A stretch of 43,664 bases of DNA from Escherichia phage Fraca. Where the stretch lies: the sequence record LR597645. One strand, given 5' to 3'. Shown here in pieces: positions 28,427-33,760 of this stretch. The position numbers were made by a program, and so were the translations under genes. A model generated the notes under the pieces. The model had not been told where the DNA came from and made no database searches. It saw nothing but the letters and a program-made list of their open reading frames with translations. Within the stretch, counting starts at the first letter, position 1. Every line of letters begins with the position of its first letter.

Positions 28427-29134
28427 TCACCCATGCTTCCTGTAGGTCTGCGGCATGCTGCCGATCACCTTTCCGAAGATGAAAATTTTGTTCATCTCTT
28501 CCTTCTCGATTGGTTCCCATGGTAGATAGGTATGGTTGTCAGAGATAACTAAGAGTTTGTCTTTCATCTTTTGTAAGCGCTTAACATGCGATGTGTCATC
28601 GTAGATGAACGCGTATATACCGTCGCCGTCGAAATGCTGAACGCTGATATCGACGAAGAGTAAGTCCCCTGGCTCTATGGTGCCAGACATGCTATCACCT
28701 CGAACGTTGATGATGCGTATCTGCTCCTGTTTCCGGCCATTAAACATTTGACGGGCATCTTCAACTGAGTATTCCACGGAGCGCAGCACCTCCACGAATT
28801 CGCTGTTAATTATGCCCGGGCCAGCACTTACGGTAAGGTCGAGTACGTCAACTCTGAAGATGGCTGGATCTTTTTTGTTATTCATCGGTGGGGGTGGTTG
28901 TTGGTCGTCACCCCTCATTGGTCCAGTACCGTTTGATAGCCACTCCGAACGAACACCCAGGGCATTAGCTATTTCAACGATTTTGGTTGTGCCTCTAGCA
29001 TTTCCAGATGTTATTCGCCATATGGTTGGTTGTGCCATATTCGCCGCTTTGGCTAACTGACCCTGGCTCATGCCCATCTCATGCATTGCGTAGTTAAGTC
29101 TGTCAGCTAGCGTCTTAAGTGTTCTCTCTTGCAT
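28427..29134 (-). CDS. cI: CI-like repressor (HTH plus S24 LexA-like peptidase domain)
   Basis: ATG at 29134 with GGAGG RBS; N-terminal HTH; C-terminal GDSM...K catalytic dyad motif. Confidence 0.85.
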   Translation of the reverse strand: MQERTLKTLADRLNYAMHEMGMSQGQLAKAANMAQPTIWRITSGNARGTTKIVEIANALGVRSEWLSNGTGPMRGDDQQPPPPMNNKKDPAIFRVDVLDLTVSAGPGIINSEFVEVLRSVEYSVEDARQMFNGRKQEQIRIINVRGDSMSGTIEPGDLLFVDISVQHFDGDGIYAFIYDDTSHVKRLQKMKDKLLVISDNHTYLPWEPIEKEEMNKIFIFGKVIGSMPQTYRKHG

Positions 29135-29179
29135 ATTTATAGCCTCCGCTATCACATTCTAGTCAAGCATGATAAACAA

Positions 29180-29229
29180 GTCTATTGCTCATTCCAATAG
29201 CAATTGCTATTATAAGTTCGATAGCAACT
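29180..29229. promoter_or_regulatory. Putative OR/PRM/PR operator region between cI and cro
   Basis: Overlapping palindromes CTATTGCTCATTCCAATAG (29182-29200), AATAGCAATTGCTATT (29196-29211) and TTGCTAT-N10-ATAGCAA (29204-29227). Confidence 0.6.
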
Positions 29230-29248
29230 GAACGGGATTAGCAAAAAA

Positions 29249-29467
29249 ATGAAATCAGCAATTGAAAGAGCTATTGATGCTGCTGGAGGAGTAAATGCTC
29301 TAGCTCGCGCTATAGGTGTAAAACAACCCTCTGTCTCTCGCTGGAGAAAGGTTGGTGTTGTTGGGGTGGAACATGTGCCTGATGTTGCGGCCTTTACTGG
29401 GATTCCCGCCCATGAACTGAGACCTGACAAACCAAAATTATTCCCTCACCCGGGCAATGAGGTGTGA
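29249..29467 (+). CDS. cro: Cro-like HTH regulator
   Basis: 72 aa divergent from cI across the operator cluster; HTH region GGVNALARAIGVKQPSVSRW. Confidence 0.7.
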   Translation: MKSAIERAIDAAGGVNALARAIGVKQPSVSRWRKVGVVGVEHVPDVAAFTGIPAHELRPDKPKLFPHPGNEV

Positions 29468-29468
29468 C

Positions 29469-29678
29469 ATGTCACACCCAATCACTACCGAAAACCAAAT
29501 TAAGCCATTGGATATCGATTATCGCGATCCGCGCGGTGTGATTGTGCATGTCACCGGCTGGAATCGGGATAAACAGCAGGTGTATTTCACCAGACAGAAT
29601 TATCCGCATGAATGCATGCAGCCTGTCTGGAAGTTCCAACAATATTTTACGAAGGTCTCGGAGGCGCAAAATGCGTGA
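29469..29678 (+). CDS. Hypothetical protein (cII position)
   Basis: 69 aa; ATG at 29469 with GAGGTG RBS, 2 nt after the cro stop. Confidence 0.45.
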   Translation: MSHPITTENQIKPLDIDYRDPRGVIVHVTGWNRDKQQVYFTRQNYPHECMQPVWKFQQYFTKVSEAQNA

Positions 29679-30693
29679 TTACGGAAAGGTGTCTCCTCAC
29701 TTCTGGATTGGCAGAACAGGCAAAGAGCTGCGTCAGGCTGGGCCAGAGTCTCAGCTTGTGGCGTTGTACCTGCTTACCAGTCCGCACGCCAATATGATCG
29801 GTCTTTATTACATGCCCCTTGCGTTCCTGTCTCATGAGACTGGATTAACCTTGGAAGGGGCTAAGAAGGGGCTTAATAGCGCCATTAAAGCCGGGTTTTG
29901 TAAGTACGACGAGCATTCAGAGATGGTGTGGGTCATCGAAATGGCAACGCATCAAATCGGCGAGGCGCTGAAACCCGGAGACAAGCGCTGTACTGGAGTA
30001 CAGAACGAATACAACAAAGTATCGGATAACCTATTTCTTTCAGAGTTTTACGAGAAATATTCGAAGCAGTTCAATATGACCTGTCCCCGTAGTAGTGAGC
30101 TCCAGATCCCGGAAGTAAATGAAGGGGCTTCAAAGGGGCTTGCAAGCCAAGAGCAGGAACAGGAGCAGGAGAAAGAACAAGATCAAACTAATTTGTCCGA
30201 TTCGAATCGGACTGATGGCGATAAACCTGACGAGTCGAAAGGGAAACCTTCACAGGAAAAACCTGATTCAGAATCAGATGATGCTGAAGGCCAAGATCCA
30301 GTCGATGTCGCTTTCGAAAATATTTTTTGGGGGGCAGGTCTGAGAAAGGATGCCAAGGTCAAGGCTAAGTCAGCGTTCAGGACCAAATATCGCGACTGGA
30401 AAAAAGCGAACCGAGGTACGCCTGAGAACTTCGCCGTTATGCTGGCTGAAGATATCAGCCTCCGGGTGAAAACACAGCAAATGGGGTTCGACAAACTCCT
30501 GCCAGCGTCATACCTGAACGGAGAGCGCTGGAACGATGAAAAACCAAATGGAGCTCCTCAGATATCCGCAAGCGCAAACGCCATCGGTGGGACAGGTGCT
30601 TCCTGGTTCGCAAAACCAAGTGACGGTTCGGCTGAGGTATTTATCAGCCAGGCAGCCATTGACCGCATGAAGCGCGGAGCTAACCGCCCATGA
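29671..30693 (+). CDS. Putative replication initiation / DNA-binding protein with acidic low-complexity linker
   Basis: 340 aa from ATG at 29671; lies upstream of the primase-helicase; EQ/D-rich linker around 30130-30300. Confidence 0.45.
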   Translation: MRDYGKVSPHFWIGRTGKELRQAGPESQLVALYLLTSPHANMIGLYYMPLAFLSHETGLTLEGAKKGLNSAIKAGFCKYDEHSEMVWVIEMATHQIGEALKPGDKRCTGVQNEYNKVSDNLFLSEFYEKYSKQFNMTCPRSSELQIPEVNEGASKGLASQEQEQEQEKEQDQTNLSDSNRTDGDKPDESKGKPSQEKPDSESDDAEGQDPVDVAFENIFWGAGLRKDAKVKAKSAFRTKYRDWKKANRGTPENFAVMLAEDISLRVKTQQMGFDKLLPASYLNGERWNDEKPNGAPQISASANAIGGTGASWFAKPSDGSAEVFISQAAIDRMKRGANRP

Positions 30694-30796
30694 AAAGAAT
30701 CCTCAAACGTCTACTGGTTGCTGGCTATAACCGCGGCTTTTTGCGTGAGGAATTCGTGACTATGTGCTTTATAAAATTCGATTTACGGAGTGTGTG

Positions 30797-32668
30797 ATGA
30801 CCCCTGCTGAGTTATCTGAAAAATTATGGGACAACGCCGAAAGAGTTGCGAAATACCTGCTTCCACGAGGACACCTCGAGGGCAAGGAGTGGTGCGCTGG
30901 TAATACCAATGGTGATGCCGGTAAGAGCCTGAAAATTAATCTCGGTGGTAAGAAGACTTGGGCAGATTTTGCAAGCGGCGACAGCGGAGACCTGCTTGAT
31001 CTTTGGGTTCTGGTGCGTAACTGCCAGCTGCACGACGCTATGCGGGAAGCGAAAGAGTTCCTTGGGCTGAAGGACGACGATAACCACTTCGAGGCGAAGA
31101 AAAAAACCTTCTCACGTCCAACCAAAAAAGGCGTTAAAAAGGCGAGCCATTGCTACGACTACCTCTCTTCCCGTGGCATCACCCGAGAGACAGCTGATCA
31201 ATTCCGTGTTTCGGACGCAGTCGTCTGGTACCACGATGAAAACCGCGAAATTCCGGCAGTGGCGTTTCCGTATCTTCGCAACGGTGAGCTTTTGCAGGTA
31301 AAGCGAATCGGCACTGAACGACCAAATGGCAAAAAGTTGATCATGGCTGAAGCTGATTGCGAGCCATGTCTGTTTGGCTGGCAGGCTATGGACGCGAAAG
31401 CTCGCGCTGTTGTGCTTTGCGAAGGAGAGATTGACTGTATGACCTACTCGCAATTCGGTATCAGTGCTCTATCGGTACCGTTCGGCGGTGGAAAAGGGGC
31501 CAAACAGCAATGGATCGAATACGAGTATCACAACCTCGACCGATTCGAAGAAATTTGGTTAAGCCTCGATAACGATGATGTAGGGCGCGAAGCCGCAAAA
31601 GAAATTGCTCGTCGTCTAGGGGAGCATCGTTGCCGCCTGGTAGAGCTGCCGCACAAAGATATCAATGAATGCCTGACCTCCGGGATGAGCGAGGATGAAA
31701 TCTGGCACTACTTGGGGACCGCTAAATTCTTTGACCCTGATGAACTCTGCTCTGCGGGTGATCTCCTTCAGGAAACACTGGATGCGTTCGAGCATCGAGA
31801 CGTTGGATTATTTTCCAGCCCGTGGGATTCGCTGAACAGTAATTTCAAATTCCGCGCCGGCGAGCTGACGCTGGTTAACGGAGTAAACGGCCACGGAAAA
31901 ACCGAGCTGGTGGGACATATCGCCGTCAATGCCATGAGCCAGGGAGTCCGGGTATGCATTGCCTCGCTGGAGCTTAAGCCTGGGAAAATGTTGGCTCGTC
32001 TTACCCGGCAAACCATTTGTAGAAAAAACCCAGAACGTACTGAAATCATCATGACTAACGAGTGGTTTTCTGATCGTCTTTGGGTGTTCAAACTCACCGG
32101 AACAGCCAAGGCCGATCGCCTGCTGGAAATATTTGCCTATGCCAGACGCCGCTATGGAATCGATCTTTTCGTTATCGACAACTTGGCAAAATGTGGACTC
32201 GATGAAGAGGACTACGGTGGACAAAAAGAATTTATCGATACCCTCTGCGACTTTAAAAACGAGCACAACTGCCATGTTCTGCTGGTAACGCATGCCAGAA
32301 AAACAAACGAAGCTGCACCAACAGGGAAAATGGATGTTAAAGGCACTGGCGCTTTAACTGACATGCCCGACAACGTTATGGCCGTCTGGCGTAATATCCC
32401 GCGCGAACTGGCGCAGCGCAAAGCTGAAAGAATGGGGTATGAGAGCCTTGATAAGGACGAACAGACTGCTATCCAAATGCCCGCTTCGATGATCCGCCTG
32501 TTGAAACAACGTGAAGGGGAAGGCTGGATCGGAGACATAGGGGCTAACTTTGATTCCCGCTCACACCAGTTTATCGAGGGTGATAAAGGGCCCTTCAATT
32601 ACTTGGCCGGCAAACAGCAAAGTGAACTTGATATTGAGTGGGAAGCCACCAACGCAACGAGGTATTAA
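30797..32668 (+). CDS. DNA primase-helicase (Toprim plus DnaB/RecA-like ATPase)
   Basis: ATG at 30797; Toprim-like VLCEGEIDCMT; Walker A GVNGHGKTE; Walker B-like LFVIDNL. Confidence 0.75.
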   Translation: MTPAELSEKLWDNAERVAKYLLPRGHLEGKEWCAGNTNGDAGKSLKINLGGKKTWADFASGDSGDLLDLWVLVRNCQLHDAMREAKEFLGLKDDDNHFEAKKKTFSRPTKKGVKKASHCYDYLSSRGITRETADQFRVSDAVVWYHDENREIPAVAFPYLRNGELLQVKRIGTERPNGKKLIMAEADCEPCLFGWQAMDAKARAVVLCEGEIDCMTYSQFGISALSVPFGGGKGAKQQWIEYEYHNLDRFEEIWLSLDNDDVGREAAKEIARRLGEHRCRLVELPHKDINECLTSGMSEDEIWHYLGTAKFFDPDELCSAGDLLQETLDAFEHRDVGLFSSPWDSLNSNFKFRAGELTLVNGVNGHGKTELVGHIAVNAMSQGVRVCIASLELKPGKMLARLTRQTICRKNPERTEIIMTNEWFSDRLWVFKLTGTAKADRLLEIFAYARRRYGIDLFVIDNLAKCGLDEEDYGGQKEFIDTLCDFKNEHNCHVLLVTHARKTNEAAPTGKMDVKGTGALTDMPDNVMAVWRNIPRELAQRKAERMGYESLDKDEQTAIQMPASMIRLLKQREGEGWIGDIGANFDSRSHQFIEGDKGPFNYLAGKQQSELDIEWEATNATRY

Positions 32669-32669
32669 A

Positions 32670-32981
32670 ATGGATCGCCTAATTAGAGAAATGTCGTATC
32701 TCTTTACCAAGCAGCGTTTTATGGAGCTTCAGGAAACGGCAAAAGACATCGCAATCGGTCATAGTGATTTTCCTGAGTGTTTCGGTCTTATTGCTGACGC
32801 CATCGCTGAATTTGTTGAAGACACTCCTGATGATGAGTGGCGAGAGCATGAAAAAATCCTTATGCACTACGTTGCTATGCGTGTTCTGACGCTGTGGGGT
32901 AACGGCGATAAAGTGACTGATGTCCAGTGGGCACACCCTGGCTGGTTTGGCACTGCTGAAAAGGGGGAAACCATTCAATGA
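32670..32981 (+). CDS. Hypothetical protein
   Basis: 103 aa; ATG at 32670 two nt after the primase-helicase stop; overlaps the next start. Confidence 0.5.
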   Translation: MDRLIREMSYLFTKQRFMELQETAKDIAIGHSDFPECFGLIADAIAEFVEDTPDDEWREHEKILMHYVAMRVLTLWGNGDKVTDVQWAHPGWFGTAEKGETIQ

Positions 32982-33760
32982 AGTTGGAAGCATCACTAAA
33001 ACACTTTAGCCCTCAGGGTGTGCACATCAGCGACGACGTGAAAGGAACCTCTCCGGATCGTCTCACCGGCACTGATGTAATGGCGGCAATTGGCACCACC
33101 AGCAGCCGTGCGCGCTTCGGACTGGCGGCGTTCTTCGGTAAAGCGGGAATCAGCAAAACGGATGAACAGCTCGCAGTTCAGGCGCTGGCGCGATATGCGA
33201 TGGATGTCGCACCGAAGAATGTTCGCAAAGCAGCTGGTGGGCAGTTCGGATGGTGCATGCAGATGCTGGCACAATTTGCCTTTGCTGATTACTCCCGTTC
33301 AGCGGCTACCAGCGTGACGTGTCACAGCTGCAGTGGTACCGGGTTTATCTTCGGTAATGAGGATGTGGTTAAACATCCTGGTATTTTCGATGCAGACGGT
33401 GCCGAAGTGGTGGCTCCGAAGATAAAAAATGAGCTGGTGAAAAGGGTTTGCGGAACATGCGGAGGAAAGAAAGTGATCCTTGCCCGGTGCAGGTGCGGCG
33501 GTAAAGGCGAAGTGTTGGACCGCAAAGCGACTAAAGACAGCGGCGCACCGGTTTTCAAAACGTGTGAACGTTGCTCTGGTAATGGCTTCTCTGCTATCTC
33601 CTCGGCGACGGTACACCGTGCCATTCTGAAGCGTCTCCCTGACCTCCATCAGTCCTCATGGTCACGCAACTGGAAACCCTTTTATGAAATGCTGGTGGAC
33701 ACTCTGCGCCAGGGGGAGCGTCATGCAGCAGTGGAATTTGAGAAGGCGACAACTTATTAA
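32978..33760 (+). CDS. Putative late antiterminator Q-like protein with DnaJ-type zinc finger repeats
   Basis: 260 aa with four CxxCxGxG motifs; sits between replication genes and the late promoter/lysis region. Confidence 0.5.
   Translation: MKLEASLKHFSPQGVHISDDVKGTSPDRLTGTDVMAAIGTTSSRARFGLAAFFGKAGISKTDEQLAVQALARYAMDVAPKNVRKAAGGQFGWCMQMLAQFAFADYSRSAATSVTCHSCSGTGFIFGNEDVVKHPGIFDADGAEVVAPKIKNELVKRVCGTCGGKKVILARCRCGGKGEVLDRKATKDSGAPVFKTCERCSGNGFSAISSATVHRAILKRLPDLHQSSWSRNWKPFYEMLVDTLRQGERHAAVEFEKATTY

Follow-up and report, generated by a model that had tools for sequence, protein, structure and literature searches.

The gene at positions 29671..30693 of Escherichia phage Fraca (sequence record LR597645; the whole 43,664-nucleotide stretch is hereafter called the window) probably encodes a replication initiator that resembles lambda O without being homologous to it, and whose own coding sequence carries the phage replication origin. 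This reading draws on sequence conservation, a structural model, and analogy with lambda. Comparison at the DNA level with more than 200 related viral loci revealed conservation of three elements within the gene, namely 11-bp iterons, a purine-rich hexamer tract, and a palindrome. We also observed repeats specific to each type of N-terminal domain, a winged-helix fold and a disordered stretch in the predicted structure, and co-occurrence of the C-terminal domain with a helicase gene. A preliminary description of the window, made from the letters alone, had suggested an origin within or near the repetitive part of this coding sequence, as in O; the three DNA-conserved elements and their ori-lambda-like layout give that idea computational support, the activity itself being putative. 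The gene does contain iteron-like repeats, and none of the families matched by its product is non-replicative. The features of the gene are as follows.

29671..30693, + strand: initiator gene, ATG 29671 to TGA 30693, 340 residues; identified by PHROG replication families and AlphaFold2
29671..30105, + strand: winged-helix N-domain coding region, residues 1–145, with a predicted recognition helix at residues 61–73
29854..29875, + strand: iteron pair 1, GAAGGGGCTAA GAAGGGGCTTA, two 11-bp units; encodes EGAKKGL at the start of the predicted recognition helix
30109..30291, + strand: disordered acidic linker coding region, residues 147–207; from predicted local distance difference test (pLDDT) values <50 and composition
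30121..30147, + strand: iteron pair 2 and a partial third unit, GAAGGGGCTTC AAAGGGGCTTG CAAGC; encodes EGASKGLAS at the end of the N-domain
30148..30171, + strand: (CARGAR)x4 tract, CAAGAG CAGGAA CAGGAG CAGGAG; encodes QEQEQEQE
30172..30194, + strand: A-rich spacer AAAGAACAAGATCAAACTAATTT, 23 bp, 78% AT
30195..30212, no strand assigned: perfect 18-bp palindrome GTCCGATTCGAATCGGAC; encodes SDSNRT at the start of the shared C-module
30298..30690, + strand: helical C-domain and tail, residues 210–340; proposed primase-helicase recruiting module

Iterons within the initiator gene

The sequence AAGGGGCT occurs four times in the 43.7-kb window, where 1.4 copies are expected on both strands, and all four copies lie on the + strand within the initiator gene. 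They form two pairs with a spacing of exactly 11 bp (29855/29866 and 30122/30133), both in the interval 29700-30700 that the preliminary description had singled out for iterons. The unit is an 11-bp near-palindrome, GAAG-SSS-CTTC, and the same DNA can be viewed as CTTnnAAG palindromes with G3 or C3 between them; the pairs can also be given as AAGGGGCTT.

The codons of pair 1 are nearly invariant. Among 49 representatives sharing <85% nucleotide identity, drawn from 80 related viral loci, the order GAA GGG GCT nnn AAG GGG CTT is kept at GAA 44/44, GGG 47/48, GCT 44/49, AAG 44/44, GGG 41/46, and CTT 46/49; the neighboring invariant residues H-E-T-G-L use all synonymous codons. Relative synonymous entropy is 0.17 for the iteron codons versus 0.86 for other conserved codons (Mann-Whitney p = 1e-8). 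Site 2 tolerates either orientation. Most homologues carry 2–4 tandem units there in the opposite orientation (GAAGCCCCTTC), and because these units are read through all three frames, they give rise to recurrent SPFEAPSKPLRS peptides. The GGGG orientation is found at both sites in the window and in about ten other lineages, including L011, L012, L016, and L076. The exact motif AAG(GGG/CCC)CTT is present 141 times inside the genes (3.1 per kb) versus 8 times in 287 kb of flanking DNA (0.028 per kb), a 113-fold enrichment. Judged from these alignments, the iterons are conserved as DNA, not as peptide.

Of the eight flanking copies, seven belong to one subclade of family A, the N-domain family of the window (L019, L022, L023, L024, L026, L032), where they lie 24–38 nucleotides before the initiator's start codon. 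These upstream AAGSSSCTT copies may serve as an operator for autoregulation, or the origin may extend to them.

The repeats might, alternatively, serve only as cis-regulatory operators of the initiator, acting in autorepression, as a transcriptional roadblock, or in copy control, with the origin located elsewhere. Iteron-type initiators, such as those of iteron plasmids, commonly autoregulate via their own binding sites, and an operator function would agree with this habit, with the extra copies upstream of the start codon in the one subclade, and with the presence in the window of just four sites in two distant pairs. We nevertheless consider it doubtful. The motif is found nowhere else in the window, so there is no alternative iteron cluster to act as origin. 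The conserved purine tract, A-rich spacer, and palindrome would be superfluous for an operator, the layout matches that of ori-lambda (PMC7466680), and autoregulation and origin function can coexist in any case.

Purine-rich tract, A-rich spacer, and palindrome

A (CARGAR)n tract abuts the last iteron in every homologue, with n ranging from 3 to 12; it is purine-rich, with a GC content of 50–60%. The preliminary description had reported repetitive GAG/CAG DNA over about 30130-30300. The acidic low-complexity tract is real, but strict repetition is limited to 30148-30171 and the remainder is merely biased: Tandem Repeats Finder reported solely GAGCAG x3.5 at 30151-30171, and the DNA from 30172 to ~30300 is A- and purine-biased without repetition. 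The junction signature CTTnnAAGCCARGARCARGARCARGAR occurs once per stretch in at least 120 IMG/VR stretches and falls at the end of a family-A N-domain open reading frame (ORF) in 115 of 120. In two of the other five, the signature is near the end of the locus with no detectable N-domain nearby, and three have partial or more divergent N-domain matches.

If the tract were a mere low-complexity acidic protein linker, arising from peptide selection or neutral slippage and devoid of cis-acting DNA function, its predicted disorder, its variable unit number, and the free interchange of CAA/CAG and GAA/GAG within it would all be expected. This explanation is, however, largely refuted by five loci (L064, L068, L070, L077, and L080, to which the count was restricted after inspection of the peptides), where the tract lies in another frame and is translated as GAGAGA or GTGTGT. 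The five genes are intact, with N-domains homologous to the family and C-domains that match canonical-frame members (E-values of 4e-7 to 1e-39). We infer from these five intact genes that the nucleotide repeat is conserved and not the EQ peptide. Two further candidates, L005 and L081, were rejected as alternative-frame cases; their peptides show the canonical frame. Synonymous sites are also fixed in the iterons and palindrome on either side, and purine-rich tracts of another sequence occupy the same place in the other N-domain families, all of which makes a protein-only linker highly improbable. The EQ-rich peptide instead appears to be largely a translation by-product of origin DNA that is also kept as an open, flexible linker. 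The coding strand may be purine-biased simply because the linker it encodes has to be hydrophilic; more speculatively, the bias could be mechanistic, with transcription through the origin giving a stable purine-RNA/pyrimidine-DNA hybrid.

An adjacent AT-rich stretch had also been anticipated, and one is present at 30172-30194 (23 bp, 78% AT), but it is short and separated from the iterons by the 24-bp hexamer tract, which at about 58% GC is not itself AT-rich; it is much shorter than the 38-bp tract of lambda (PMC3349717). The overlapping 30-nucleotide interval starting at 30165 has a GC content of 33%, among the lowest in the gene and matched only by 30000-30074 (30–33% GC) and 30300-30329. 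Equivalent A-rich spacers exist in all other N-domain families.

The palindrome that follows is also fixed at the codon level. In 21 representatives of the C-module with <90% nucleotide identity, TCC is retained in 21/21, GAT in 21/21, TCG in 18/20, and CGG in 16/17, and the conserved residues of the C-domain proper show normal synonymous entropy in the same set. Variation is almost entirely confined to the four central bases or to a 12-nucleotide loop insertion, and the arms are retained. The conservation of the palindrome is clear at the sequence level, and it may act either as a hairpin or as a protein-binding site.

Constraint on RNA offers another explanation, whereby site 1 (GGGG) pairs at long range with site 2 (CCCC), or the palindrome forms a hairpin controlling an antisense transcript or the translation or stability of the mRNA. 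In most homologues, site 2 is indeed the reverse complement of site 1 over ~20 nucleotides, and the palindrome has the potential for a hairpin with a stem of 7 bp and scores as a weak terminator-like site on the minus strand. Yet the window and about ten other lineages have the GGGG type at both sites, which are unable to pair and are equally conserved. The count of terminator-like elements is at chance level, and compensatory changes are absent from the palindrome stems. An Rfam scan of 29000-31200 gave no match at E ≤ 1. We rejected a structured RNA because folding of 30100-30240 shows no excess stability over shuffled sequences (z = 0.28), and we regard RNA-level constraint in general as very unlikely.

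Domain organization of the initiator protein

An AlphaFold2 model built on a 104-sequence alignment confidently predicts a winged helix spanning residues ~4–130, followed by a disordered stretch and a helical C-domain, in agreement with the domain order that had been suggested from the sequence. Residues 11–140 have pLDDT values of 84–98 and follow the winged-helix order, with helices at residues 25–36, 50–57, and 61–73, a strand at residues 45–47, and a wing formed by residues 77–80 and 85–88. The linker (res. 147–207) contains 19 Asp/Glu, 7 Lys/Arg, and 7 Gln among its 61 residues. The C-domain comprises helices at residues 210–221, 226–247, 251–267, and 278–283, predicted with moderate confidence. 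The notion of a flexible linker between a DNA-binding and a helicase-recruiting domain gains computational support from the low pLDDT of the linker and from a C-domain that tracks the downstream gene (see below).

An initiator-like role is likewise upheld by the position of the gene, by its PHROG matches, and by the confidently predicted winged-helix N-domain. Specifically, the protein matches phrog_1701 ‘DnaD-like helicase loader’ over residues 1–244 (E = 1e-64) and phrog_270 ‘replication initiation protein’ over residues 129–323 (E = 2.5e-17) in PHROGs; phrog_6251 ‘replisome organizer’ is also matched, and the C-domain region matches phrog_33384. These labels are annotations, and the functions they name are putative. 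A Pfam scan of the 340-residue protein found no family of any kind at E ≤ 0.1, including Pfam DnaD and PF09524, and NCBIfam gave none. PF09524 (TIGR02220, Phg_2220_C) is present in some of the proteins that share the N-domain, all of them with other C-domains. Searching PDB sequences, either with the protein alone or with a profile of its N-domain, returned nothing meaningful, and Foldseek against the PDB gave weak, generic winged-helix matches alone (E > 0.1).

A database search with the N-domain identified 1,948 protein clusters at E ≤ 0.001, of which the best 120 were listed. Among the matches listed, the first ~160 residues are common to proteins from Enterobacteria, Acinetobacter, Burkholderiales, Alteromonadales, and others at 45–65% identity, and the C-terminal halves differ. 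In the sampled relatives with other C-domains, the downstream genes encode DnaC/IstB-like ATPases, a G39P-like loader, a HerA-like helicase, or a more distant gp4-like primase-helicase, and some loci have no recognizable replication gene downstream; where such a gene is present, the C-domain type tracks it. The C-domain type of the window lies next to the same gp4-like primase-helicase in 8/8 family-A loci and in 65/65 loci with a full-length C-domain, a pairing that holds for every fused N-domain type. Seen across these sequences, the modular pattern is what would be expected of an origin-binding module joined to a partner-specific recruiting module.

A short IP(D/E/P)GFRG tail ends the protein in L210, L211, L214, P0031, P0033, P0049, and P0075; in P0075 and P0049 it bears a weak match to the C-terminal end of DnaT, a primosomal protein of the host, and L210 has no phage helicase gene downstream. 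Relatives with this tail may recruit the host primosome directly.

Different N-domains on the same C-module

The Enterobacter kobei prophage L082 has the same operon and C-module with a different N-domain (MARIRTIKPEFW, family B). Families A and B were tried as distant relatives and are treated as separate because hhalign gave a probability of 6%, with no detectable homology. Family B has its own repeats, CTCAsTGA (CTCAGTGAG / ACTCACTGA), arranged as an 11-bp-spaced pair in the middle of the domain and further copies at its end. In L082, a 35-nucleotide all-purine tract (GGAAAGGAAGGGAAAGG..., peptide GKEGKGREE) comes after the repeats, and homology to the window resumes at TAAAACTAATTT-palindrome. 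Diverged family-B members have the same layout, a polypurine GGAAGGGAA tract and then the C-module, with site spacings that are often multiples of 11.

Four further N-domain types sit on this C-module. Each has different repeats, which were read from 1–3 loci per type and occur within the N-domain and again before a purine- or A-rich tract:

MARIRTIKPEFFLH type: ACGCG-type repeats; N-terminus resembles family B
MAYEWIKIEVV type (MAYEW): repeats AGCGTTAC
MANSWLRLWH type (MANSW): GTCAC-type repeats
MATSMPKTK type (MATSMP): repeats CCGGGATTATT

A distinct repeat for each N-domain type would be expected if every N-domain binds its own coding DNA. The domain-boundary DNA could instead be mainly a recombination joint, the tract, spacer, and palindrome persisting because they let phages exchange N- and C-modules. 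In favor of this, homology between the window and L082 breaks off exactly at the end of the purine tract, and at least five N-terminal types (MRDYG, MARIRTIKPEFW/MARIRTIKPEFFLH, MAYEW, MANSW, and MATSMP) are fused to the C-module at the palindrome. A joint leaves unexplained the type-specific repeats, the 11-bp phasing, and the pair inside the N-domain, and selection for evolvability is weak compared with near-absolute synonymous constraint. Shuffling at this place is also an expected consequence of a conserved origin core, as in lambdoid O genes, so we hold a role mainly in recombination to be unlikely.

Two side observations concern these exchanged modules. In the polypurine tract ~40–80 nucleotides before the palindrome, L186 differs from L153 by +5 nucleotides and L194 from L193 by −4, splitting the family-B gene into N- and C-terminal ORFs; tract variants that are not multiples of three could reflect slippage or phase variation, pseudogenes, or assembly errors. 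The N-domain-swapped Enterobacter prophages L082-L084 also have an ORF for an HNH endonuclease between DUF4222 and the initiator (locus 3586/3649-4014), and a homing endonuclease beside the exchanged module may have driven the exchange.

A broader generalization can be put forward tentatively. Temperate phages of Proteobacteria and beyond might share a common modular origin cassette, in which the linkers of many unrelated initiators (QEQEQE, GKEGKG, EEIELEE) would be the translation of a tripartite core composed of 11-bp-phased, family-specific iterons, a purine repeat on the coding strand, and an A-rich spacer plus palindrome. The purine repeat, far from being a passive spacer, would be the zone of strand opening or helicase loading, for instance through a stable purine-RNA/pyrimidine-DNA R-loop that arises when the gene is transcribed or through periodic single-strand contacts as in DnaA-trios, and one iteron pair would overlap the codons of the very recognition helix that reads it.

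Proposed mechanism and points that weigh against it

Binding, unwinding, helicase recruitment, and origin activity are what we infer for the Fraca gene, in the following order. Derepression would start rightward transcription, and the cro-like gene, the DUF4222 ORF, the initiator, a 35-residue ORF, and the primase-helicase would be expressed as a translationally coupled chain. The N-terminal winged-helix domain would then bind the 11-bp iterons, one helical turn apart, in the clusters at 29854-29875 and 30121-30147. The resulting nucleoprotein complex would open or mark the adjacent region 30148-30212, which spans the (CARGAR)4 tract, the A-rich spacer, and the palindrome. Finally, the gp4-like primase-helicase, the product of the downstream gene, would be recruited through the disordered linker and the helical C-domain.

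A classical origin comprises at least three contiguous iteron sites. Several points count against the proposal in this respect and others. The window has 2+2 iterons only, split by 267 bp. The repeat tract is GC-neutral, not a classical AT-rich unwinding element, and the AT-rich spacer is just 23 bp long. Because iteron pair 1 overlaps the recognition-helix codons, part of its amino-acid conservation is structural, although this does not explain the fixed synonymous positions. The palindrome stems lack compensatory changes, and four lineages have one uncompensated arm mismatch. A search for DnaA boxes found no enrichment in the window. Origin function is deduced from sequence for all members of the family, and the proteins encoded directly upstream of cI in Eru4 phages are listed as ‘of unknown function’, with no origin described (PMC8951638).

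A lone DnaA box with one mismatch (TTATCCGCA, 29600-29608) lies inside the DUF4222 ORF, 70 nucleotides before the initiator start; such boxes occur at chance frequency across the window.

Comparison with known initiators and origins

In lambda, the origin sits midway through gene O and is built from four 18-bp iterons plus an AT-rich tract of 38 bp (PMC3349717, PMC7466680); this tract is strand-asymmetric (PMC7466680, PMC3349717). In O proteins of Shiga toxin (Stx) phages, two extra iterons add 13 residues, a protein segment that is partly a translation of the origin (PMC7466680). The Fraca gene resembles lambda O and its lambdoid and Stx relatives (P27, 933W) in lying after a CI/Cro switch and in its predicted intragenic origin with iterons; its short AT-rich stretch lies beyond the hexamer tract. 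The N-terminal domain of O binds the origin and its C-terminal domain recruits the helicase system, and the same arrangement is proposed here. Ori-lambda also has a palindrome to the right of its AT-rich tract, a piece of general background not found in PMC3349717 or PMC7466680.

The differences from lambda are equally marked. The two proteins have no sequence homology (Pfam at E ≤ 0.1, NCBIfam), and the Phage_rep_O profile is unmatched. The putative Fraca origin has two iteron clusters, separated by 267 bp, of 11-bp units spaced 11 bp apart, where lambda has four contiguous 18-bp units, and a GC-neutral, purine-rich hexamer tract precedes an AT-rich stretch that is much shorter than that of lambda. 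A gp4-like primase-helicase, self-contained, is the presumed partner here, versus P plus host DnaB.

The replisome-organizer initiator G38P of Bacillus phage SPP1 binds repeats in its own gene 38 (oriL) and hands over to the phage helicase system. Our gene is similar in having repeats in its own coding sequence, and some N-domain relatives adjoin a G39P-like loader, but there is no detectable sequence relationship, the repeat architecture is different, and the host range is Gram-negative. The relation to the phrog_1701, phrog_270, and PF09524 group is uneven: the PHROG match is strong, but the protein itself lacks Pfam DnaD and PF09524. Iteron-plasmid initiators (RepE/pi/RepA, Rep_3-type; the RepA_N-type ‘MDR initiator’, PDB 4pta) are unlike the Fraca protein, for which one winged-helix domain is predicted and not two in tandem. 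Structural similarity to the RepE/pi/RepA class is no better than to CRP-type regulators, and the sites here are inside the coding sequence.

Eru4 Stx phages (Shigella phage 75/02 Stx, POCJ13) have an N-domain homologue with 54.7% identity in the equivalent position beside cI, but with another C-domain and other downstream genes. The Eru4 representative, Shigella phage 75/02, carries a homologue of the initiator gene. Papers on the Eru types of Stx phages do not discuss origins or iterons, and literature searches on the QEQEQEQ peptide with replication and on the iteron DNA string found nothing relevant.

Genomic context of the initiator gene

The gene lies in a lambdoid early-right operon, between a CI/Cro-type switch and a T7-gp4-like primase-helicase, with these neighbors:

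28427-29155, − strand: S24-type CI repressor
29249-29467: Cro/YdaS-like protein
29457-29678: DUF4222 ORF
30690..30797, + strand: 35-residue ORF MKRILKRLLVAGYNRGFLREEFVTMCFIKFDLRSV; conserved, annotated in phage LMessi, and called in L082-L084
30797..32668, + strand: T7-gp4-like primase-helicase; Toprim_2, AAA_25, DnaB_C; phrog_239, E = 5e-147
32978-33760: Q antiterminator

The ATG at 29671 is taken as the true start because GGAGG lies 7 nucleotides upstream and every homologue begins with MRDYGKVSP; on the same grounds, a 383-residue ORF starting at TTG 29542 was rejected as the gene. The placement of a 340-residue ORF upstream of a primase-helicase, as first described, was borne out by the phrog_239 match of the downstream product and by its domains, with Toprim_2 at residues 217–304 and AAA_25/DnaB_C at residues 363–603, that is, a Toprim primase fused to a RecA/DnaB-type helicase. 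Its start at 30797 is taken from the LMessi annotation.

Stop/start overlaps chain the DUF4222 ORF, the initiator, the 35-residue ORF, and the primase-helicase (ATGCGTGA at 29671, ATGA at 30690, and TGATGA at ~30795). These overlaps suggest translational coupling and a primase-helicase start at 30797, not at GTG 30764. The product of the 35-residue ORF may be a small accessory replication factor. A scan for promoters and terminators gave counts at chance level.

The closest cultured relatives are Escherichia phages LMessi (92.7% nucleotide identity) and CharmingMan, where the initiator gene is annotated as hypothetical; the IMG/VR contig 3300011640_000002 (L002) encodes an N-domain 99% identical to that of the window. 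Megablast of the initiator gene against 5,426 complete E. coli RefSeq genomes returned no match. Even so, one protein with 96% identity is listed under an E. coli O21 draft genome, and the nearest cultured phages infect E. coli. The initiator/helicase module appears to be rare as an E. coli prophage.

Implications for the initiator family

Origins inside initiator genes are already known from lambda and Stx phages, and phage SPP1 likewise has its origin inside the initiator gene. What appears to be new, from the sequences compared here, is that the lambda O/ori logic goes together with a protein not homologous to O, that the repeats follow another grammar, and that several N-domain types have a core of purine repeat and palindrome in common; a literature search found no description of an origin or repeat tract for this family. 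If true, the finding would provide a compact candidate origin fragment of ~400 bp and a rule for annotation, by which a conserved low-complexity linker in a phage initiator would mark the origin if its DNA stays the same in whatever frame it is read. Initiator modules would be exchanged exactly at the tract/palindrome joint because the origin core is conserved there. It would also give a sequence-level origin to a large, uncharacterized initiator family (1,948 clusters; more than 120 viral stretches with the signature), whose members include the Stx-converting Eru4 phages; effective production of Shiga toxin reportedly depends on replication of the phage DNA (PMC7466680).

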